Shown here: in pieces, positions 19,913 through 37,915 of the stretch
Layout: the number at the start of each line of letters is the position of its first letter
How positions within the stretch are numbered: position 1 is the first letter of the stretch
Source: a virus
Taxonomy: Duplodnaviria > Heunggongvirae > Uroviricota > Caudoviricetes
Reading direction: 5' to 3' (one strand)
Virus record (IMG/VR): IMGVR_UViG_2778261269_000005
Location: 1-37,915 of that record
DNA length: 37,915 nucleotides
Position numbers and translations under genes: made by a program
The notes under the pieces: model-generated
Database searches by the model: none
What the model saw: only the letters and a program-made list of their open reading frames with translations
What the model was told of the DNA's origin: nothing

Positions 19913-19989
19913 TGGAGAGCGGGTGGCGAGAATCGAACCCACATCATCAGCCTGGAAAGCTGAGGTAATAGCCATTATACGATACCCGC
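19913..19989 (-). tRNA. diverged tRNA-Gly(UCC)-like gene, possibly a pseudo-tRNA
   Basis: Minus strand reads GCGGGTATCGTATAATGGCTATTACCTCAGCTTTCCAGGCTGATGATGTGGGTTCGATTCTCGCCACCCGCTCTCCA: cloverleaf with GGTTCGATTC T-loop and UCC anticodon, but a 7-66 mismatch, wobbles in the T-stem and no clean CCA. Confidence 0.55.
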
Positions 19990-29889: not shown

Positions 29890-30315
29890 TTAGTGCATCA
29901 CCACGGCATTTCCCGCCGGGCCACCACGATTCATCTGATTGAAGCCAGCGATCGCCACTGCGACAAAATCATCGGCGTCTCTCACCAGCCGTTCCCGCGA
30001 CTCCACCAGCTCCCGAAACCAGGCTGAACTGTGACTGCGCATTCGGGCCACCAGCAGAGGCGGCATTGCCTTTTCGATCGCAGGCAACAACGCCTGAATT
30101 TTTTTAACCGCATCAGGAGTGTCTTTCTCCACCCAGCGGAAAATTTTCTGGGTATTGCGAGCCAGGGCTTCTGGGTGTGAATCGTCATACAGTTCCGGAA
30201 ACGTCATACCCAGTTCAAAATAAGCCCGGGTTATTTCAGCTGCCGGAACTTTTTCGCCGTCCGGATGCGCCCAGGCATTCATCGCCATGCGGATGTGCTC
30301 ATGCTTGATTTTCAT
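29890..30315 (-). CDS. YdaT-like protein (CII-position early regulator)
   Basis: 141-aa ORF beginning MKIKHEHI, directly after the Cro-like gene (ATGA overlap). Confidence 0.5.
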   Translation of the reverse strand: MKIKHEHIRMAMNAWAHPDGEKVPAAEITRAYFELGMTFPELYDDSHPEALARNTQKIFRWVEKDTPDAVKKIQALLPAIEKAMPPLLVARMRSHSSAWFRELVESRERLVRDADDFVAVAIAGFNQMNRGGPAGNAVVMH

Positions 30316-30614
30316 GAATCAACTCCATCAGATAAGCATGCACTACAATCACCTTCAGCATGAACTACATGTGTTTGCCCCAAACGAATGCCGCTCGCAT
30401 ACTCAGGCCAAATAAGCTCCCAATCATGGGGTCGTAGCTCCGCCCTACTTACTTGGCCTTCCGTCGCAGATTCGATCATAAGGGCGCGGGTTGGAGATAT
30501 AGCTGCTCGTCCAGACGCCATTTGCGATAAGTAAGATGGCGATACACCAAGTCTGGCCGCGAATTTCTTAGCATCACCAACCCTCAATGATTTAATAAAC
30601 TCTTTTAATGTCAT
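30312..30614 (-). CDS. Cro-like HTH regulator (YdaS-type)
   Basis: 100-aa ORF; FAARLGVSPSYLSQMASGRAAISPTRA HTH; divergent from the repressor across an operator-rich intergenic region. Confidence 0.7.
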   Translation of the reverse strand: MTLKEFIKSLRVGDAKKFAARLGVSPSYLSQMASGRAAISPTRALMIESATEGQVSRAELRPHDWELIWPEYASGIRLGQTHVVHAEGDCSACLSDGVDS

Positions 30615-30620
30615 ACCTTC

Positions 30621-30705
30621 CTCGGTTTAGTGTTTTTTTCGAGTTTAGTGTTTAATAAACCATTAAGTCAAGTATTTGCTTATTTAGTGATTACTAAAGA
30701 TAATT
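30621..30705. promoter_or_regulatory. OR-like operator/promoter region between Cro-like gene and repressor
   Basis: GTTTAGTGTTT at 30625-30635 and 30643-30653, TATTTAGTGA at 30681-30690, TTAAGTCAAGTA at 30663-30674; TTGACT and TTGCTT-17-GATAAT promoter-like hexamers. Confidence 0.5.
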
Positions 30706-30710
30706 ACCAC

Positions 30711-31082
30711 ATGCAAAAAAAAGAAATTCGCCGTTTACGTCTCAAGGAGTGGTTTAAAGATAAAACTCTGCCACCCAAAGAGAAGAGCTACCTATCTCAA
30801 CTAATGAGTGGGAGGGCCTCGTTTGGAGAAAAGGCTGCCAGAAGAATAGAGCAAACATACGGGATGCCGGAAGGGTATCTGGATGCGGAATACGCAGAAC
30901 AACCGGAAGTTTCTCCACCACATGTAGGGTTAACGTCTAATCAACTGGAATTATTGCAGATTTTTTCAGCCTTCCCTGAGGATGAGCAACGCCAGATAAT
31001 CAGCGAGTTAAAGCAGAAAAAAGAATCAATGGAAGATCTCATAGCGAGATGGATTGCGGCGCAAAAATGCCGCCGCGCCTGA
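30711..31082 (+). CDS. prophage repressor, XRE-family HTH without S24 peptidase domain (CI analogue)
   Basis: Start set at ATG 30711 (123 aa): MQKKEIRRLRLKEWFKDKTLPPKEKSYLSQLMSGRASFGEKAARRIEQTYGMPEGYLD; almost no leader after the -10-like GATAAT. Confidence 0.65.
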   Translation: MQKKEIRRLRLKEWFKDKTLPPKEKSYLSQLMSGRASFGEKAARRIEQTYGMPEGYLDAEYAEQPEVSPPHVGLTSNQLELLQIFSAFPEDEQRQIISELKQKKESMEDLIARWIAAQKCRRA

Positions 31083-31102
31083 GTTATAAAACCGGAGGAA
31101 AC

Positions 31103-31294
31103 ATGAATAGAGCCCTTTCACCAATGGTTTCTGAATTTGAAACCATTGAACAAGAAAACAGTTACAACGAATGGCTGCGTGCGAAAGTAGCAACGAGCCT
31201 TGCAGATCCGCGCCCAGCAATTCCCCATGACGAAGTTGAGCGCAGAATGGCAGAACGCTTTGCTAAAATGCGCAAGGAACGGAGCAAGCAGTAA
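31103..31294 (+). CDS. putative type II antitoxin
   Basis: Start set at ATG 31103 (GGAGG RBS), 63 aa; stop 1 nt before the toxin start. Confidence 0.55.
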   Translation: MNRALSPMVSEFETIEQENSYNEWLRAKVATSLADPRPAIPHDEVERRMAERFAKMRKERSKQ

Positions 31295-31295
31295 A

Positions 31296-31574
31296 ATGTT
31301 ACCCGTGTTATGGCTTGAAAGCGCAGATACCGACCTAGATGATATAACTAGTTATATTGCTCGTTTCGACATAGATGCGGCTGAACGCTTATGGCAGCGA
31401 TTAAGGGGTTGTGTGCTGCCGTTATCCGAACATCCGTATTTATACCCACCAAGCGACAGAGTACCTGGCTTGCGTGAGATTGTAGCCCACCCTAACTATA
31501 TAATTCTATACCGCGTAACAACATCAAGCGTTGAAGTAGTAAACGTGATCCACACAAGACGCCAGTTTCCCTAA
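31296..31574 (+). CDS. RelE/ParE-superfamily toxin
   Basis: Start set at ATG 31296 (92 aa): ...LREIVAHPNYIILYRVTTSSVEVVNVIHTRRQFP is RelE/ParE-like. Confidence 0.65.
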   Translation: MLPVLWLESADTDLDDITSYIARFDIDAAERLWQRLRGCVLPLSEHPYLYPPSDRVPGLREIVAHPNYIILYRVTTSSVEVVNVIHTRRQFP

Positions 31575-31640
31575 CTTTCACTACCAATAGAAACATAACA
31601 ACCGCAACGACTTTATCAAAAGCGTTGTGTTTGTTACGCC

Positions 31641-31690
31641 CCATGGTTTAGTTTTTACTTGACTTAAGTTTAATGTTTATTAAACTAAAA
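31641..31690. promoter_or_regulatory. OL-like operator/pL-like promoter
   Basis: GGTTTAGTTTTT, ACTTGACTTAAG (inverse of the OR TTAAGTCAAGT) and TTTAATGTTTATTAAAC repeat the OR elements; TTGACT-16-TAAACT on the plus strand. Confidence 0.5.
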
Positions 31691-31865
31691 ATACCAACCC
31701 ACCCCGCCCCACAGAACGCAGGGCAATACTTCGAGTTACCATGCAGTGGTCAGGGGGTAAGTAGCCAGCCCGAGGCGTAAGAACATGACGGCAGGGTTCA
31801 ACTTTAATAACTATGCAGCAGGTTTTTGTTCCGCTACCCCGGCGTTAAGGGGAAATGAGGTCAGC

Positions 31866-32021
31866 ATGGATACTATCGATCTTGGCAACAACGAATCTCT
31901 GGTATACGGCGTGTTTCCCAACCAGGACGGAACGTTCACCGCCATGACGTATACCAAAAGCAAAACGTTTAAAACCGAAACTGGCGCGCGTCGCTGGCTG
32001 GAAAGAAATTCAGGTGGGTGA
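31866..32021 (+). CDS. ydfA: YdfA-like small protein
   Basis: Start set at ATG 31866 (GAGGT RBS): MDTIDLGNNESLVYGVFPNQDGTFTAMTYTKSKTFKTETGARRWLERNSGG, 51 aa. Confidence 0.7.
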   Translation: MDTIDLGNNESLVYGVFPNQDGTFTAMTYTKSKTFKTETGARRWLERNSGG

Positions 32022-32022
32022 T

Positions 32023-32151
32023 ATGGATTTCGACACAATCATGGAAAAGACTTACGAAGAATACTTCGAAGGCCTTGCCGAAGGCGAAGAAGCTCTCGGC
32101 TTCAGCGAATTTAAACAGGCGCTTTCCAGTTCGGCAAAATCTAACGGCTGA
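32023..32151 (+). CDS. ydfB: YdfB-like small protein
   Basis: Hand-translated 42-aa ORF MDFDTIMEKTYEEYFEGLAEGEEALGFSEFKQALSSSAKSNG; below the ORF-track cutoff. Confidence 0.65.
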   Translation: MDFDTIMEKTYEEYFEGLAEGEEALGFSEFKQALSSSAKSNG

Positions 32152-32180
32152 TAAGCGAAACAGCACCGCGAGGAATCAGT

Positions 32181-32399
32181 ATGCAGAAACGAGAACCCGT
32201 CATCATCGCGCCAGACTATACCGATGATAAACTTTATGAGTGGATGCGCCAGAAAATTAATGCAGCGCAGGATCTGAAATGGGCCAATGAAGCCAGGGCT
32301 AAGCAGGCTGAAAATCTGTCCGCTCTGGAGCAGGATATCACCAGGCTGGAAAAAGCAGCGGCATTAAGCATTGCCAGAATGGTTACATACCCACGTTAA
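32181..32399 (+). CDS. ydfC: YdfC-like protein
   Basis: 72-aa ORF MQKREPVIIAPDYTDDKLYEWMRQKINAAQDLKWANEARAKQAENL... Confidence 0.7.
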   Translation: MQKREPVIIAPDYTDDKLYEWMRQKINAAQDLKWANEARAKQAENLSALEQDITRLEKAAALSIARMVTYPR

Positions 32400-32421
32400 T
32401 AGCTAACCAACGAGGCTAATA

Positions 32422-32796
32422 ATGGAATTTAAAGATTTACCAATGCAATTCCAGGAAATGGCAGCGAATATAGTTCGTTCCCAACTGGCGACTCTTGACC
32501 TGAGTACCGTAGAAAAAGAAACCATCGATACTATATCCGGTAACGTGCGTCGTGCCTTTATCGGGCTGTACGAAGAGAAGCAGCTCTCTGATAACCAGGA
32601 TTTACATGAAAAATACTTCATGGAATTAATGGATATCATTGATAAGGGGTTTGGCTTGTTAATGAAAAAGAAATGGATTCGGATAGACCCCCTTAAGAAC
32701 CATTTTACTGAGTGCGGCATTAATCCCAGCGATTTAAACCATCCCGCCACAGATGGGAGTGTTACAGTTAGCCATGAAATTTCGATTAATCATTAA
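32422..32796 (+). CDS. hypothetical protein in AT-rich insertion
   Basis: 124-aa ORF with GAGG upstream; no family recognised; 3' end overlaps the convergent gene by 11 bp. Confidence 0.45.
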   Translation: MEFKDLPMQFQEMAANIVRSQLATLDLSTVEKETIDTISGNVRRAFIGLYEEKQLSDNQDLHEKYFMELMDIIDKGFGLLMKKKWIRIDPLKNHFTECGINPSDLNHPATDGSVTVSHEISINH

Positions 32797-33007
32797 AATC
32801 AATTGCACTTTCAATAAGTGATGCCATCTCATTGCATTTTGTTGAATTCATCTTACGCAATGAGTCACAAATTTCCGCTGGCTTTGATGACGCAGGCAAC
32901 TTAGCAGCAAGTAGCATAATTGCCGTTTTTATAGCAGTGAGTTCATCCGCAAGTCCAGCAGGAGAAACATCGTGGTTAAACTGGATATTTACATTTTTAC
33001 TAGTCAT
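32786..33007 (-). CDS. hypothetical protein, convergent partner in AT-rich insertion
   Basis: 73-aa ORF with strong AGGAGGG RBS 5 nt upstream of ATG 33007; no family recognised. Confidence 0.5.
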   Translation of the reverse strand: MTSKNVNIQFNHDVSPAGLADELTAIKTAIMLLAAKLPASSKPAEICDSLRKMNSTKCNEMASLIESAIDFND

Positions 33008-33338
33008 TTCACCCTCCTAAGGGTTGGTAATTAAGGAGTTCTCCACGGGTCAGGTGGAGTGCGTGCGCCGGACACGGGTGAGCATCCGGCACTGGCAGTT
33101 TACTGAAAGGATATATCCCTGAAAAGTCAGGGCATAACGCGGAAGCGCACGGCGAAGTTCGTCTCTATGTACGGCGTAGTTAAATTTAATTCGACCGTAC
33201 GCTTCCGGTTGTGGCAATACGCGAAATGGCGCGGCGGTAAGTATGGCGGTGTTATTCCTTCCCCGTTGAGGACACCGGGTTGTCAGGTTGACCATACGCT
33301 TAAGTGACAACTCCGCTGCAACGCCCTCTGTTATCAAT

Positions 33339-33396
33339 TTTCTGGTGACGTTTGGCGGTATCAGTTTTACTCCGTGGCTGCTCTGCCGCCCTTTTT
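33339..33396 (+). ncRNA. dicF: DicF small regulatory RNA
   Basis: TTTCTGGTGACGTTTGGCGGTATCAGTTTTACTCCGTGGCTGCTCTGCCGCCCTTTTT matches remembered DicF nearly base-for-base, with 3' hairpin and U-run, upstream of dicB. Confidence 0.85.
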
Positions 33397-33592
33397 AAAG
33401 TGAATTTTGTGATGTGGTGAATGCGGCTAAGCGCACGCGGAACAGTTAAAAGACCATTTGTTCTCCGTATCAATACTTATGGGTAGGTACTTGCAGGCGG
33501 GTCCCTGTATTCCGGCGTTAATTGTTAACTGGTTAACGTCACCTGGAGGCACCAGGCACCGCATCACAAAATTCATTGTTGAGGACGCGATA

Positions 33593-33781
33593 ATGGAAAC
33601 GTTATTACTCAATTCCACTACGCCTGAGACTCGTTTTGAAATTGGCGTTATCACTGGCGATAAAAACTTTATTGAGGATGCCATTAATCAGATAAAGCAT
33701 GAGCCAGATTCATCAAATGAGATATGCATTGCTTCAATGCTGGCCCGTTTACGCCCGACGCAAAAAGGATGCTGGCAATGA
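33593..33781 (+). CDS. dicB: cell division inhibitor DicB
   Basis: Start set at internal ATG 33593 (62 aa): METLLLNSTTPETRFEIGVITGDKNFIEDAINQIKHEPDSSNEICIASMLARLRPTQKGCWQ. Confidence 0.85.
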   Translation: METLLLNSTTPETRFEIGVITGDKNFIEDAINQIKHEPDSSNEICIASMLARLRPTQKGCWQ

Positions 33782-33981
33782 ATACCACATTTGCACTTGT
33801 TCTGACGGTTTTTCTTGTTTCCGGTGAAACAGTTGACATGGTTATTGGCGTATACAGCTCAATGAAAGAATGCATGGCTGCCGCAGATGAACAGAAAATT
33901 CCCGGTAACTGTTATCCGGTCGATAAAGTTATTCACCAGGATAATAACGAAATCCCGGCAGGACTTAAAACAGCGCCGTAA
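33778..33981 (+). CDS. ydfD: YdfD-like small membrane/lysis protein
   Basis: Start set at ATG 33778 (ATGA overlap with dicB stop): MNTTFALVLTVFLVSGETVDMVIGVYSSMKECMAAADEQKIPGNCYPVDKVIHQDNNEIPAGL... Confidence 0.7.
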   Translation: MNTTFALVLTVFLVSGETVDMVIGVYSSMKECMAAADEQKIPGNCYPVDKVIHQDNNEIPAGLKTAP

Positions 33982-34058
33982 TTGATATTCGGTTTCATTT
34001 TTATATGTCAGCAATGACAGGGATTTGTTCACCCTTAAATCTGTAATGAGGTTTATCA

Positions 34059-36494
34059 ATGAGCACTGATAAAGAAGAATTTGCATTATATTGTGAAGCA
34101 AAAAATGACAAAGTCAGAAAACGCCTTGGAATTAAAGGTGGTTTTTACTGGACTACAGCAAAAAAATTATCTGTTGCCATCTCCCGCTGCATTACCGCAA
34201 TGGATGACAACGATTATGATGAAGACGACTTTAAAAAACCCGTCCGCGTCCATTTACCCGTTGTGAATGACCTTCCACCTGAAGGCGTGTTTGATACTGA
34301 ATTCTGTAACCGTTACGAAAAAGGCGGGGAAGATGGCATCACAATGGTATTTATCGCGCCCTCACCCTCTGCGCAGGACAAACCAGCCAACACTGACAAT
34401 ACCAACGTCAACGGCGAAGACATGACTGAGATTGAGGAGAACATGCTCCTGCCGGTTTCAGGTCAGATTCTGCCTGTTCGATGGCTGGCACAGCACGGCA
34501 GCGAAAAACCGATCACACACGTTTCGCGGGACGAACTGCGCGCATTACATAACGCACAGGATGAAAAACTTCCCGCCGTTACCGCGCTGGCTATCTCAAA
34601 TAAAGCAGCGCAACTCGAACCGCTGGAGATTCGCGATCTCCACAAACTGGTGCGAGACACTGACAAAGTTTTCCCCGCCCCCGTAAATTCGGACCTGGGA
34701 CTGATAACCTCTTTTATCGAAGCTTACCTGGACGCCGACTACACCGATCGCGGTCTGCTGACAAAAGAGTGGATGAAAGGAAATCGTATTTCGCGTATCA
34801 CCCGTACGGCTTCCGGTGCAAATGCCGGTGGCGGGAACAAAACCGATCGCAATCCGAATTTAGTACACACCTTCGATACGCTGGATGTGGAGATTGCAGC
34901 AGCCACACTTCCGATGGATTTTAATATTTATGAAATTCCGGGCAGCGTTTATCGTCGCGCAAAAGAAATCGTCCTGAAAAGAGAAAGTCCGTTCAAAGAA
35001 TGGTCCGCAGCACTTCGCGCAACCCCGGGTATTCTGGATTATTCCCGCGCCGCTATTTTTGCACTTATCCGGAGCGCTCACCCTGAGTTTTATCACTACC
35101 CGGGACGCCTTCAGGGGTATATCAACGCCCACTTAACGGAGACTGATCACGAGAACCCCAGCAAGGAAACTCTCACTGCTGCACGACATACACCGGAAAA
35201 AGACATCCTGGAAGAAGTTAACCGCGAACTGGCTGCTGAACGCGAAACAGAAGAAGAAAAAAATAATGAGGAAAAATCACAACCGTCTGACGCAATGGCA
35301 GATGAACAGGCAACGACTGAAGCAATGGGACAGGATACAACTGAATATCGCCAGGACACACAATCGCTGGATACTCAGGCACAGATAAATCCGGTTAATC
35401 AGGTAAAAGTTACCGCTGACGAAGTAAACAAAATTATGCAGGCAGCCAATATCAACCAGCCTGATGCCGACAAAATACTGGCAGTCCATCGCGGTGAATT
35501 CGTTGACGGAATTAGCGACCCGAATGATCCGAAATGGGTTAAGGGGATTGAAACCCGCGATTCTGTGAACCAGAACCAGCCCGAATCGGAACAAAACAGC
35601 CAAAATGCGTTACAAAACGAGCCAGAAACGAAACAGCCTGAACCAGAAGAGCAACAAGAACCGGAAAAAGTCTGCACCGCCTGCGGTCAGACCGGCAGCG
35701 GCAACTGTCCTGACTGTGGCGCGGTGATGGGCGACGCAACATACCAGGAAACATTCGATGAAAAAAATCAGGCTGAAGTTCAGGAAGATGATCCGGAGGA
35801 AATGGAAGGCGCTGAACATCCGAACAATGAGAATGCTGGTAACGATCAGTATCACACCAGCGATAGTGAAACTGGCGAGGCGACAGATCCCTTAATTAAT
35901 GTGAACGGTCATCACGAAATCACATCCACCAGCAGTACGTGTGACCATCTAATGATCGACCTTGAAACCATGGGAAAAAATCCTGATGCCCCGATTATCT
36001 CAATAGGTGCAATATTTTTCGATCCGCAAACCGGAGATATGGGACCGGAATTTAGTAAGACTATAGATCTGGAAACAGCTGGCGGAGTCATTGATCGTGA
36101 CACCATTAAATGGTGGCTTAAGCAATCACGCGAGGCGCAATCTGCCATTCTGACCGATGAAATCCCGTTAGATGATGCACTGTTGCAATTGCGGGAATTT
36201 ATCGACGAAAACTCCGGCGAATTTTTTGTTCGTGTCTGGGGAAATGGAGCCAGCTTCGACAACGTAATTTTACGCCGTTCATATGAACGGCAGGGGATCC
36301 CCTGCCCGTGGCGTTACTACAACGATCGCGATGTACGCACAATTCTTGAACTGGGAAAAGCCATAGACTTCGATGCCAGAACGGCTATTCCATTCGAAGG
36401 CGTACCCCACAATGCGCTGGACGATGCCCGTCACCAGGCAAAACAAGTTTCAGCTATCTGGCAAAACCTGATCCCGAGTCAGGCTGATTTTTAA
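34059..36494 (+). CDS. large early-left protein with C-terminal DEDDh 3'-5' exonuclease domain (YdfE-like)
   Basis: 811-aa ORF; C-terminal MIDLETMG...ISIGAIFFD, WGNGASFDNVIL and HNALDDARHQAKQ motifs; acidic Q/E/N-rich low-complexity centre; CTACGQTGSGNCPDCG zinc-ribbon-like motif. Confidence 0.7.
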   Translation: MSTDKEEFALYCEAKNDKVRKRLGIKGGFYWTTAKKLSVAISRCITAMDDNDYDEDDFKKPVRVHLPVVNDLPPEGVFDTEFCNRYEKGGEDGITMVFIAPSPSAQDKPANTDNTNVNGEDMTEIEENMLLPVSGQILPVRWLAQHGSEKPITHVSRDELRALHNAQDEKLPAVTALAISNKAAQLEPLEIRDLHKLVRDTDKVFPAPVNSDLGLITSFIEAYLDADYTDRGLLTKEWMKGNRISRITRTASGANAGGGNKTDRNPNLVHTFDTLDVEIAAATLPMDFNIYEIPGSVYRRAKEIVLKRESPFKEWSAALRATPGILDYSRAAIFALIRSAHPEFYHYPGRLQGYINAHLTETDHENPSKETLTAARHTPEKDILEEVNRELAAERETEEEKNNEEKSQPSDAMADEQATTEAMGQDTTEYRQDTQSLDTQAQINPVNQVKVTADEVNKIMQAANINQPDADKILAVHRGEFVDGISDPNDPKWVKGIETRDSVNQNQPESEQNSQNALQNEPETKQPEPEEQQEPEKVCTACGQTGSGNCPDCGAVMGDATYQETFDEKNQAEVQEDDPEEMEGAEHPNNENAGNDQYHTSDSETGEATDPLINVNGHHEITSTSSTCDHLMIDLETMGKNPDAPIISIGAIFFDPQTGDMGPEFSKTIDLETAGGVIDRDTIKWWLKQSREAQSAILTDEIPLDDALLQLREFIDENSGEFFVRVWGNGASFDNVILRRSYERQGIPCPWRYYNDRDVRTILELGKAIDFDARTAIPFEGVPHNALDDARHQAKQVSAIWQNLIPSQADF

Positions 36495-36558
36495 TGTTCA
36501 ACCCCGGTCGTCGCCCACCAGCTATAGTGGTGGCGACCATGATTAGCGAACGACGCTC

Positions 36559-36807
36559 ATGGCAAGACTTATTCTGCTCACTGAGTGGGCAAAAGAGGAA
36601 TTCAGCGATCCGGTCCCGACTCCGGGCACGTTAAGTAAATACGCTAAAGCCGGAATGATATTTCCTCTCCCCAAAAAAGTTGGAAGACACTGGCGAGTGG
36701 ATCCACGAGCTCGCTTTGTCGGAATGGTAAACAAGCCGGAGGTGATCGCCACAGATCACCCTGCTTTGAAGAGGATACTGGAAGATGGCGCGCCCGCGAA
36801 AATATAA
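36559..36807 (+). CDS. xis: excisionase (lambda Xis-like)
   Basis: 82-aa ORF: LTEWAKEE...TLSKYAKAGMIFPLPKKVGRHWRV resembles lambda Xis; 3' end overlaps the int start. Confidence 0.7.
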   Translation: MARLILLTEWAKEEFSDPVPTPGTLSKYAKAGMIFPLPKKVGRHWRVDPRARFVGMVNKPEVIATDHPALKRILEDGAPAKI

Positions 36808-37915
36808 AACCGAAGTTCCGGGACTATCTCCGTATTTTGACAAAAGAAATAACAAAGTTTACTGGCGTTACAGGCATCCCATAACAGGCAAAAATCACGG
36901 TCTCGGCAGTATTGACCAGAAACTGGCAGAAACTATTGCAGCAGAAGCGAACAGCCGTCTTGCCAGGCAGCAAATGGAACAAATGCTCAGTCTGCAGGAG
37001 AAAATTATTAATGATACCGGCGGTTCATCAACCGTTTCCATTTTTCTGAATAATTACAGAAAAATTCAACAGGAAAGATATGAAAACGGAGAGATCAAAC
37101 TCAACACGCTGAAACAAAAAGCGGCCCCTCTCAGGGTATTTGATGAACGTTTTGGCACCAGACCGTTAGATGCCATAACTGTAAAAGATGTGGTATCGGT
37201 GCTGGAAGAGTACAAGGCCAGAGGACATAACAGAATGGGGCAAATTTTCAGGAAGGTACTGATCGATGTTTTCCGGGAAGCTCAGCAAACAGGCGATGTT
37301 CCGCCAGGCTTTAACCCTGCAGAATCGGCAAAAAAACCGCAGGTGCGGATATCAAGACAGCGACTGACTTTTGATGAGTGGATGATGATTTATAACGCAG
37401 CGGAAAAGGATGGTTACTTTTTACAGCGCGGCATGTTGCTGGCACTGATGACAGGCCAGCGCCTTTCAGATATTTGCAAAATGCAATTTTCGGATATCCG
37501 GGATGGTTATCTTCATGTCGAACAGCAAAAAACAGGAACCCGGATTGCCATCCCTCTTGCTCTGCGTTGCAATAAATTAAATCTCACCCTGGATGATGTG
37601 GTGTCATCCTGTCGCGATTGCGTTCTTAGTCCGTGGCTATTGCACCACCATCATGCGAAAGGGACAGCCAAGCGCGGCGGGATGGTTAAGCCAGCAACGT
37701 TAACAGTTGCATTTAAAAAAGCGCGGGATTCTGTAGATTACAACTGGTGCCCTAATGGTACCCCACCCTCTTTCCATGAACAGCGATCATTGTCGGAGCG
37801 TTTATTCAGGGAGCAAGGGATCGACACCCAAATTTTGCTGGGCCATTCGAATCAAAAAATGACCGATATTTACAACGATGCACGTGGTAAGGAGTGGAAA
37901 AAACTGGTCATTTGA
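36785..37915 (+). CDS. int: site-specific tyrosine integrase, lambda family
   Basis: 376-aa ORF; catalytic-region motifs TGQRLSDICKMQFSDI, HEQRSLSERL, LLGHSNQKMTDIYNDARG; stop codon is the last 3 bases of the window. Confidence 0.9.
   Translation: MARPRKYKTEVPGLSPYFDKRNNKVYWRYRHPITGKNHGLGSIDQKLAETIAAEANSRLARQQMEQMLSLQEKIINDTGGSSTVSIFLNNYRKIQQERYENGEIKLNTLKQKAAPLRVFDERFGTRPLDAITVKDVVSVLEEYKARGHNRMGQIFRKVLIDVFREAQQTGDVPPGFNPAESAKKPQVRISRQRLTFDEWMMIYNAAEKDGYFLQRGMLLALMTGQRLSDICKMQFSDIRDGYLHVEQQKTGTRIAIPLALRCNKLNLTLDDVVSSCRDCVLSPWLLHHHHAKGTAKRGGMVKPATLTVAFKKARDSVDYNWCPNGTPPSFHEQRSLSERLFREQGIDTQILLGHSNQKMTDIYNDARGKEWKKLVI

Follow-up and report, generated by a model that had tools for sequence, protein, structure and literature searches.

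What does a 3′–5′ exonuclease do at a site that in lambda belongs to the recombination genes exo, bet and gam? The question is raised by a gene for an 811-aa protein in the virus record IMGVR_UViG_2778261269_000005 of IMG/VR (37,915 nt, analysed over its whole length and referred to below as the window). The gene closes the early-left operon and is followed by xis and int, in agreement with a preliminary description of the sequence, which assigned it to the lambda exo/bet/gam position. That description had divided the protein into an unknown N-terminal part, an acidic low-complexity linker with a zinc-ribbon motif, and a catalytic domain of the DnaQ-like DEDDh type, different from the lambda-Exo nuclease. 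The explanation that we propose, and that we hold with some reserve to be the probable one, is that a platform corresponding to the N-terminal region of RecE (RecE-N) carries a DexA-like 3′–5′ exonuclease that trims or degrades linear DNA at its 3′ ends early in lytic development.

Domain composition of the 811-aa protein

The gene runs from ATG to stop as a single open reading frame (ORF) of 811 codons in the ORF list (coordinates of all features are given in Table 1). A GAGG Shine-Dalgarno sequence is found 7 nt 5′ of the ATG, and an identical protein of 811 aa (P0001) is deposited at NCBI as "exonuclease [Escherichia coli]". Together with the purifying selection described below, these observations confirm the ORF as first delimited.

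The C-terminal domain was assigned by several comparisons. The Pfam family Rv2179c-like (PF16473) matches residues 630–801 with E=3.6e-66 (222.7 bits against a cut-off of 27; profile positions 2–177 of 177). The exonuclease motifs can be read directly in the sequence as MID634LE636T, ASFD734N and H784NALDD789A. When 66 homologues were aligned, most of them 36–58% identical to the query, D634, E636, D734 and H784 were each present in all 66, and D789 in 65 of them. The Exo III arrangement H-x4-D, which marks the 'h' subtype, is present as well, H784 and D789 aligning with H186 and D191 of phage T4 DexA. AlphaFold2, supplied with the homologue alignment, predicted an RNase H-like alpha/beta fold with pLDDT >90 across residues 626–805. 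In a Foldseek comparison of this model with the PDB, DexA ranked first (8KEL/8KEN, E~1e-11), followed by RNase T, REXO2, oligoribonuclease (Orn) and Cap18; the Foldseek probability was 1.00 for DexA, RNase T, REXO2 and Orn, and ERI1 is also a structural neighbour. Searching the PDB sequences with the family profile again gave DexA (E=8e-22 over DexA residues 3–198), the next sequences scoring 1e-5 or weaker. Since every family test of sequence and predicted structure agreed, the domain can be taken as a genuine DEDDh exonuclease whose nearest match is a DNA 3′–5′ exonuclease. The first assignment of a DnaQ fold, and not a PD-(D/E)XK one, is thus borne out, also in the catalytic Asp, Glu and His residues, for which conservation on alignment had been proposed as the check.

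Closest as it is among solved structures, and in spite of the common DEDDh catalytic set, DexA differs from the window domain in several respects: identity is ~21–23%, and DexA is a stand-alone protein of 227 aa with extra loops, encoded by a virulent phage with modified DNA. The Pfam model itself is built around Rv2179c of Mycobacterium tuberculosis and matches residues 630–801 end to end. Rv2179c, the founder of PF16473, is a chromosomal stand-alone exoribonuclease, a difference from the window protein that is drawn from its description. No Rv2179c chain appeared in the PDB sequence list, the profile list or the top-50 Foldseek list.

The N-terminal part, regarded at first as uncharacterised, turned out to have a known relative. 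Pfam Exonuc_VIII (PF06630) matches residues 57–189 (E=3.4e-28), and the NCBIfam equivalog model for exonuclease VIII (NF007259; PRK09709) covers residues 1–613 with its positions 1–602 of 877; the score of 883.5 bits stays under the cut-off of 1269 because the last third of the profile is missing. BLASTP against RecE of E. coli K-12 aligned residues 58–613 with RecE 50–591 at 56% identity, and no similarity was detected past residue 613. This boundary lies close to the beginning of the RecE nuclease domain, which comprises residues 564–866 (review, PMC11611040). By homology, the N-terminal ~610 residues correspond to the non-catalytic part of RecE (exonuclease VIII) that precedes its nuclease domain, a correction that a recT-linked recE allele 95% identical in this part (see below) bears out.

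As modelled with AlphaFold2 from 38 homologues, residues 1–100, 113–265 and 266–405 fold confidently (mean pLDDT 83.6), residues 102–112 and 407–445 are disordered, and residues 446–625 are mostly of low confidence. Within the helical domain 113–265, some stretches are more than 90% identical to K-12 RecE. The acidic low-complexity linker of the preliminary description is present, Asp and Glu making up 20–35% of residues 361–440 and 521–625, so that the DEDDh domain is predicted to be tethered to three folded RecE-type domains through ~220 mostly disordered, acidic residues. Two short motifs stand out in this tether. The first, GISDPNDPKWV, occurs with hardly any change in 24 of 58 long representatives (no more than 50% identical overall) irrespective of which nuclease type follows, and is found in K-12 RecE too; it looks like a candidate short linear motif for binding a partner. 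The second is the zinc-ribbon-like Cys4 motif announced earlier, which is common to K-12 RecE and present in just seven of the 58 long representatives; its Pfam zinc-ribbon matches (DZR/RZ) are sub-threshold and its pLDDT is 58–74.

Exchange of nuclease modules among recE-type genes

A homologue search with residues 1–613 recovered, among thousands of near-identical DEDDh-ended proteins, one protein of 895 aa (P0093) that is 95% identical over these residues and carries PF12684, the PD-(D/E)XK domain of RecE; Pfam gave no PF12684 match in the window protein. The gene for P0093 lies in another E. coli prophage (locus L008), with dicB and DUF1482 upstream and recT, lar, DUF1187, xis and int downstream. 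DNA similarity between the window and L008 ends near position 35897, that is, at codon 613. Over codons 1–500, dS between the two genes is only 0–0.017, and the exchange must therefore be recent. The window has a DEDDh cassette of ~600 bp where L008 has the PD-(D/E)XK domain followed by recT, lar and DUF1187. The window protein is accordingly best described, on this comparison, as a RecE whose nuclease domain was swapped out along with recT.

The alternation of the two nuclease types can also be followed among more distant relatives. Taking 38 N-terminal homologues, one per 50%-identity cluster, PF06630 was present in all 38, with nine ending in PF12684 and eight in PF16473. When 150 representatives were sorted into BLAST classes, ~20 were DEDDh-ended fusions, ~16 were PD-(D/E)XK-ended fusions and 70 were stand-alone DEDDh proteins of 180–250 aa. 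To judge from these classes, the alternation is recurrent among distant N-terminal homologues and not a one-off event.

Mosaicism also affects the N-terminal region. Residues 266–370 (34854–35168, + strand) are 95–99% identical at the amino acid level to the alleles of L007, L036 and L110, and only 32–35% identical to those of L113/L114, despite the flanking domains of the latter being 85–98% identical to the window gene. From its distribution, this segment is a sub-module that is itself exchanged between alleles. In a further protein (P0128, 703 aa), RecE-N (residues 50–527) runs straight into residues 84–277 of RecT, apparently as the result of a deletion that removed the nuclease domain and fused recE-N to recT.

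A sister variant of 823 aa is found in phage Tritos (L006, 4641–7112) and in mEp460-type prophages. It shares with the window protein the central linker, the motif, the zinc ribbon and the DEDDh domain (~90% identity from residue ~446 to the end), and its gene has the same position (dicB-ydfD-exo-xis-int). The difference resides in the first ~250 residues, which are unrelated and consist of a YdfE module. The first 256 residues of the Tritos protein are 99% identical to the product of ydfE, a pseudogene of the K-12 prophage Qin (L004, 18079–18999); ydfE is therefore the 5′ end of the sister variant, truncated by IS2, and not a gene for a separate small protein. We had also considered ydfE as an orthologue of the window gene, as it occupies the same operon position; this was rejected upon finding by BLASTP that it has no similarity to the N-terminus of the window protein.

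The related loci examined are the 80 top-scoring matches in IMG/VR, each with at most 6 kb of flank on either side. The sister variant is the commoner one among them: 61 have the YdfE-type N-terminus and 16 the RecE-type one. Neither RecT nor the RecE nuclease was found in any of the 80. In the window, the early-right and early-left genes were scanned with PHROG and Pfam, and no RecT, Bet or Erf-type protein was detected; the genes recognised were those for an O-like initiator, Ren, an HNH (NinG-like) protein, RusA, Q and the small proteins of the dic operon. Neither component of a lambda Red-type pair, which combines a 5′–3′ PD-(D/E)XK exonuclease with Bet, RecT or Erf, is thus present in the early regions of the window. 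As no annealing protein was found, the locus does not seem to encode a two-component recombinase of the Red/RecET type.

The relationship to RecE of the Rac prophage can be summarised as follows. Homology extends over the N-terminal ~610 residues, including GISDPNDPKWV and the Cys4 ribbon, and the genes share the slot, being the last early-left gene or genes before xis-int, after a division inhibitor of kil type. RecE, however, has a PF12684 5′–3′ nuclease of the PD-(D/E)XK type and a recT partner; the window protein has a DEDDh domain, no recT, and the opposite expected polarity. As three of four RecE tests (nuclease domain, equivalog score and RecT partner) gave a negative outcome, the window protein should not be called exonuclease VIII. 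Some phage records nevertheless use "exodeoxyribonuclease VIII", and RefSeq has "exonuclease", "3'-5' exonuclease" and "3'-5' exoribonuclease domain-containing protein"; both the exodeoxyribonuclease VIII and the exoribonuclease labels are to be read cautiously for this gene.

Proposed activity and competing explanations

Taking into account the motifs and the predicted fold, it is highly probable that the enzyme acts by two-metal 3′–5′ exonucleolysis. Two Mg2+ ions would be held by D634, E636, D734 and D789, H784 would serve as the general base, and nucleotides would be removed singly from free 3′-OH ends. That the substrate is DNA rather than RNA seems reasonably likely to us, because the nearest relative that is both solved and characterised is DexA, and because the N-terminal platform comes from an enzyme of double-stranded DNA ends. 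Activity on DNA is known both for DexA, a 3′–5′ exonuclease, and for its E. coli homologue EcD (PMC12153337). The RecE-type platform, with GISDPNDPKWV, may bring either type of nuclease to the target of RecE, be it linear DNA ends or a host partner. In K-12, DicA represses the dicBF operon of Qin, and about 1% of the cells switch it on spontaneously (PMC10448788); expression of the window gene would probably occur only upon derepression of such an operon, either at induction or in a spontaneously switched-on subpopulation. The likeliest job of the enzyme would be the trimming or degradation of 3′ ends of linear DNA in early lytic development, serving end joining or host-aided recombination, or the destruction of host or competitor DNA. 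Of the roles suggested earlier (recombination, anti-defence, degradation of foreign DNA or RNA), which were too broad, this narrows the list without singling one out.

Several points weigh against this interpretation. By the RecE review (PMC11611040), this N-terminal region has no known function, delivery to DNA ends thus being an assumption, and for the N-terminal fold neither the PDB, with a profile search of its sequences included, nor BFVD gave an informative match. Operon membership and timing are deduced from Qin and from gene order. As for the annealing families, the sequence screen of the 80 loci covered RecT alone, and the exclusion of Bet, Erf and Sak holds for the window only, by PHROG/Pfam annotation and ORF size. 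An RNA substrate is possible, given that the Pfam family is named after an exoribonuclease and that RNase T, Orn and REXO2 are structural neighbours. Finally, a literature search found no enzymology or other study of the window protein or of any RecE-N::DEDDh fusion.

A more specific role would be recombination or end joining without a phage annealing protein, which we judge rather unlikely. Chewing back duplex ends in the 3′–5′ direction would leave 5′ tails able to pair at short homologies with the aid of host functions or of a RecT/Bet protein encoded by a second prophage in the same cell, and RecE-N would supply the stimulation of linear–linear recombination that it gives to full-length RecE. 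The gene does occupy the recE/exo slot, and its first 613 codons specify a sequence that reaches 95% identity with that of a genuine recE allele; linear–linear recombination is boosted by RecE in its full length but not by the isolated nuclease domain (PMC11611040). In E. coli, the 3′–5′ exonuclease XthA suffices for joining linear fragments independently of recA and recET (PMC6379578), and many genomes hold both modules. All phage recombination exonucleases characterised so far, however, have the opposite polarity to the one expected here, presence of the DEDDh domain goes with loss of recT without exception (0 of 80 loci), and enzymes of the DexA type have been described mainly as exonucleases of single-stranded DNA and oligonucleotides, and as DNA-scavenging exonucleases (PMC12153337).

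A broader proposal, which we put forward tentatively and do not expect to be the right one, concerns RecE-N itself. The RecE N-terminal region would be a targeting platform indifferent to polarity, loaded with a 5′–3′ or a 3′–5′ nuclease, and the DEDDh version would be a distinct system and not a crippled RecE. In such a system, GISDPNDPKWV may bind a host factor, and the DEDDh version could act as an end-joining or recombination device independent of annealing proteins, or as a destroyer of linear DNA of competitors or of the host.

We consider it doubtful that the protein is an inter-phage weapon of the HREX type, comparable to EcD, which would degrade DNA of superinfecting T-even phages containing 5-hydroxymethylcytosine (5hmC) or otherwise modified, spare unmodified DNA and so protect the lysogen or the induced cell. 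Plasmid-borne EcD, the E. coli DexA homologue termed HREX, gave E. coli protection against T4 (Kang et al. 2025, PMC12153337); EcD and DexA belong to the Rv2179c/DexA-like family of the window domain. Our comparison was made with an IMG/VR proxy of 189 aa that contains the published 17-mer of the forward primer and Ala78, the residue described for EcD at this position; since the reverse primer does not match its C-terminus, it is a close relative of EcD and not EcD itself. The window protein is 38% identical to this proxy (E=3e-37). In the same operon, dicB is known to act in phage exclusion (PMC6832061), and the DEDDh module is extremely widespread in E. coli. On the other side, the residues with which DexA is reported to read 5hmC are not conserved: W152 corresponds to Y754 and D169 to A768, the alignment of the D169 loop being less certain. 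The W152 column holds W in 31 and Y in 16 of the 66 homologues, and EcD has Trp there. In the tetramer-contact region of DexA, D90 aligns with D706 and is retained, and S87 aligns with P703 and is changed; the position of D90 is Ala in EcD, where loss of the tetramer contact is connected with selectivity for modified DNA. Specificity for 5hmC was marked down once W152 and D169 had been mapped. EcD is also a stand-alone protein, with no counterpart of the 613-aa RecE-type extension, and the window gene belongs to an early operon under repressor control and does not have the location of a moron expressed in the lysogen. A scan with PADLOC-DB v2 gave no family at E<=0.1, its library dating from 2023 and thus being older than the HREX report, and assignment to a known defence system was dropped on this empty scan. 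The EcD-like gene is, for its part, an early-region gene of a P2-like prophage (L032, 6401–6991, − strand; similar genes in L011, L016, L026, L027 and L029), located between integrase/repressor and the genes for a DNA methyltransferase and a gpA-like replication protein. From this location, the 'bacterial' HREX nuclease appears to be phage-borne.

That the enzyme is an exoribonuclease, trimming or degrading the 3′ ends of operon transcripts, of small RNAs (sRNAs) such as DicF or of host RNAs, and not DNA, strikes us as improbable. The idea derives from the name of the Pfam family (after Rv2179c), from the RefSeq names that include "3'-5' exoribonuclease", and from RNase T, Orn, REXO2 and ERI1 as structural neighbours. 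The family profile nonetheless favours the DNA exonuclease DexA by a wide difference in E value (see above), several of the neighbouring 'RNases' also cut DNA, the RNase T entries being DNA complexes, and the domain substitutes for a DNA nuclease on the platform of a DNA-recombination protein.

When the window gene was compared with five alleles, dN/dS was 0.00–0.25 for residues 1–100, 0.11–0.23 for residues 113–265, 0.12–0.21 for the DEDDh domain and 0.5–0.84 for the acidic residues 566–625, values that indicate purifying selection on both folded halves. It is accordingly most improbable that the gene is a decaying, non-functional mosaic generated by illegitimate recombination in defective prophages, a reading to which truncated and split copies lend some colour (H7/L002, annotated as a pseudogene with a shorter ORF; shorter ORFs in 12 of the 80 loci; K-12 ydfE, the IS2-truncated remnant of the sister variant), and which we rejected on dN/dS of at most 0.25 in all folded domains, invariant catalytic residues, the ORF intactness of 68 of the 80 copies (>=800 aa), the presence of the gene in phages deposited as sequenced isolates, and the retention of the architecture in distant homologues.

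Genomic context, distribution and significance

DicF, dicB and a ydfD-like DUF1482 gene lie just upstream of the exonuclease gene, so that the latter closes a dicBF operon like that of Qin. The window is an apparently complete lambdoid prophage, with xis and int adjoining the end of this early-left operon. E. coli PapRG-04-4 (H1) has a gene with the annotation 'exonuclease' that is 99.7% identical in nucleotide sequence to the window gene and is found in the order dicB - DUF1482 - exonuclease - excisionase - integrase - ompW. As ompW follows int directly there, the window corresponds to a lambdoid prophage inserted next to ompW. The upstream order, DUF1482 included, is conserved in H1, Tritos, vB_EcoS-640R1 and L008; Tritos and vB_EcoS-640R1, viable phages deposited as sequenced isolates, have the gene in the same operon position.

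Table 1. Positions of the exonuclease gene, its parts and neighbouring features in the window
Feature	Position	Strand	Evidence or remark
Complete gene: RecE-type N-terminal region and DEDDh exonuclease	34059..36494	+	ORF list; identical NCBI protein
Small alpha/beta N-terminal domain, aa 1–100	34059..34358	+	AlphaFold2
Helical domain, aa 113–265; most conserved part in common with RecE, overlaps Exonuc_VIII	34395..34853	+	pLDDT 82–97
Second helical domain, aa 266–405	34854..35273	+	AlphaFold2
Acidic disordered linker, aa 406–445	35274..35393	+	pLDDT <50 for aa 407–445; Asp+Glu 25–35%; dN/dS 0.3–0.6
GISDPNDPKWV, near-invariant short motif, aa 484–494, in a stretch predicted to be disordered	35508..35540	+	Sequence comparison
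CxxC-x7-CxxC zinc-ribbon-like motif (C539-x2-C542...C550-x2-C553), aa 539–553	35673..35717	+	Sequence
Mosaic junction, ~aa 613 ('DPLI'), end of homology to recE alleles	35895..35900	+	DNA alignment with L008; BLASTP with K-12 RecE and P0093
DEDDh (DnaQ-fold) 3′–5′ exonuclease domain, DexA/Rv2179c-like, aa 626–805	35934..36473	+	PF16473; AlphaFold2; Foldseek
YdaS-like cro-type gene	30312–30614	−	Window annotation
PaaA2-type antitoxin	31103–31294	+	Pfam PaaA2, E=1e-19
ParE toxin	31296–31574	+	Pfam, E=1.6e-16
DUF1391 gene	31785–32021		Window annotation
DicF sRNA, upstream, same operon	33340..33391	+	Rfam RF00039, 75 bits (gathering score 48); complete
dicB, cell-division inhibitor, upstream, same operon	33593..33781	+	Pfam DicB, E=2.9e-26
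ydfD-like DUF1482 gene, immediately upstream	33769..33981	+	Pfam DUF1482, E=2.9e-24
Excisionase (xis), immediately downstream; no recT between the exonuclease gene and xis	36559..36807	+	ORF; 'excisionase' in H1
Integrase (int)	36785..37915	+	ORF; H1 annotation

No promoter or terminator of the gene's own emerged from a consensus scan of 30000–37915, in which matches were not above those in shuffled sequence (promoters 11 vs 11.6, terminators 14 vs 9.9). A GC-containing hairpin followed by CTGATTTTTA is found at 36467–36483 (+), in overlap with the final codons and stop codon of the gene. A terminator ahead of xis is conceivable; such matches are no commoner here than in shuffled sequence, and the hairpin was given no weight.

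Further upstream, a 150-aa ORF without a Pfam match (30630–31082, +) has the position of a repressor and directly precedes the PaaA2/ParE pair. The layout of this immunity or switch region (30630–31574, +) resembles that of a three-gene module of the paaR2-paaA2-parE2 type. Between the DUF1391 gene and DicF there are three ORFs without a Pfam family, at 32181–32399 (+), 32422–32796 (+, 124 aa) and 32786–33007 (−, 73 aa), the first of them in the position of ydfC in Qin. A tRNA-Gly (anticodon TCC) was detected at 19917–19989 (−) with ARAGORN, and with Rfam at 46.8 bits.

We then determined how common the gene is in 5426 complete E. coli genomes. The DEDDh cassette (>=80% coverage) is present in 4049 of them, with up to seven copies in one genome, and the whole gene with a RecE-type N-terminus in 1274. 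The block of recE nuclease and recT was found in 1728, fewer than the DEDDh module.

The architecture PF06630+PF16473 is precomputed in public databases, and PHROGs 607, 2082 and 20376 include these sequences. Of the alternative raised in the preliminary description, a match to a well-characterised family throughout, one part stands: catalogued families (phrog_607, phrog_2082 and PF06630+PF16473), with members in thousands of E. coli genomes, do match the whole protein. The other part does not, neither half of the chimera being experimentally characterised. The architecture is thus already catalogued (Pfam, PHROGs, RefSeq), both halves come from known families, and nothing in it is mechanistically unprecedented.

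Should the N-terminal region of RecE be a platform that accepts nucleases of either polarity, the system would be one carried by three quarters of E. coli strains and would reveal the role of the long-unexplained RecE N-terminus. If the proposals made here hold, one of the commonest prophage genes of E. coli is a relative of RecE that has switched the polarity of its nuclease and dropped its annealing partner. It would provide a natural experiment on the N-terminal 600 residues of RecE, the full-length form of which is used for direct cloning, and a candidate second role for DexA-like nucleases, in temperate phages.

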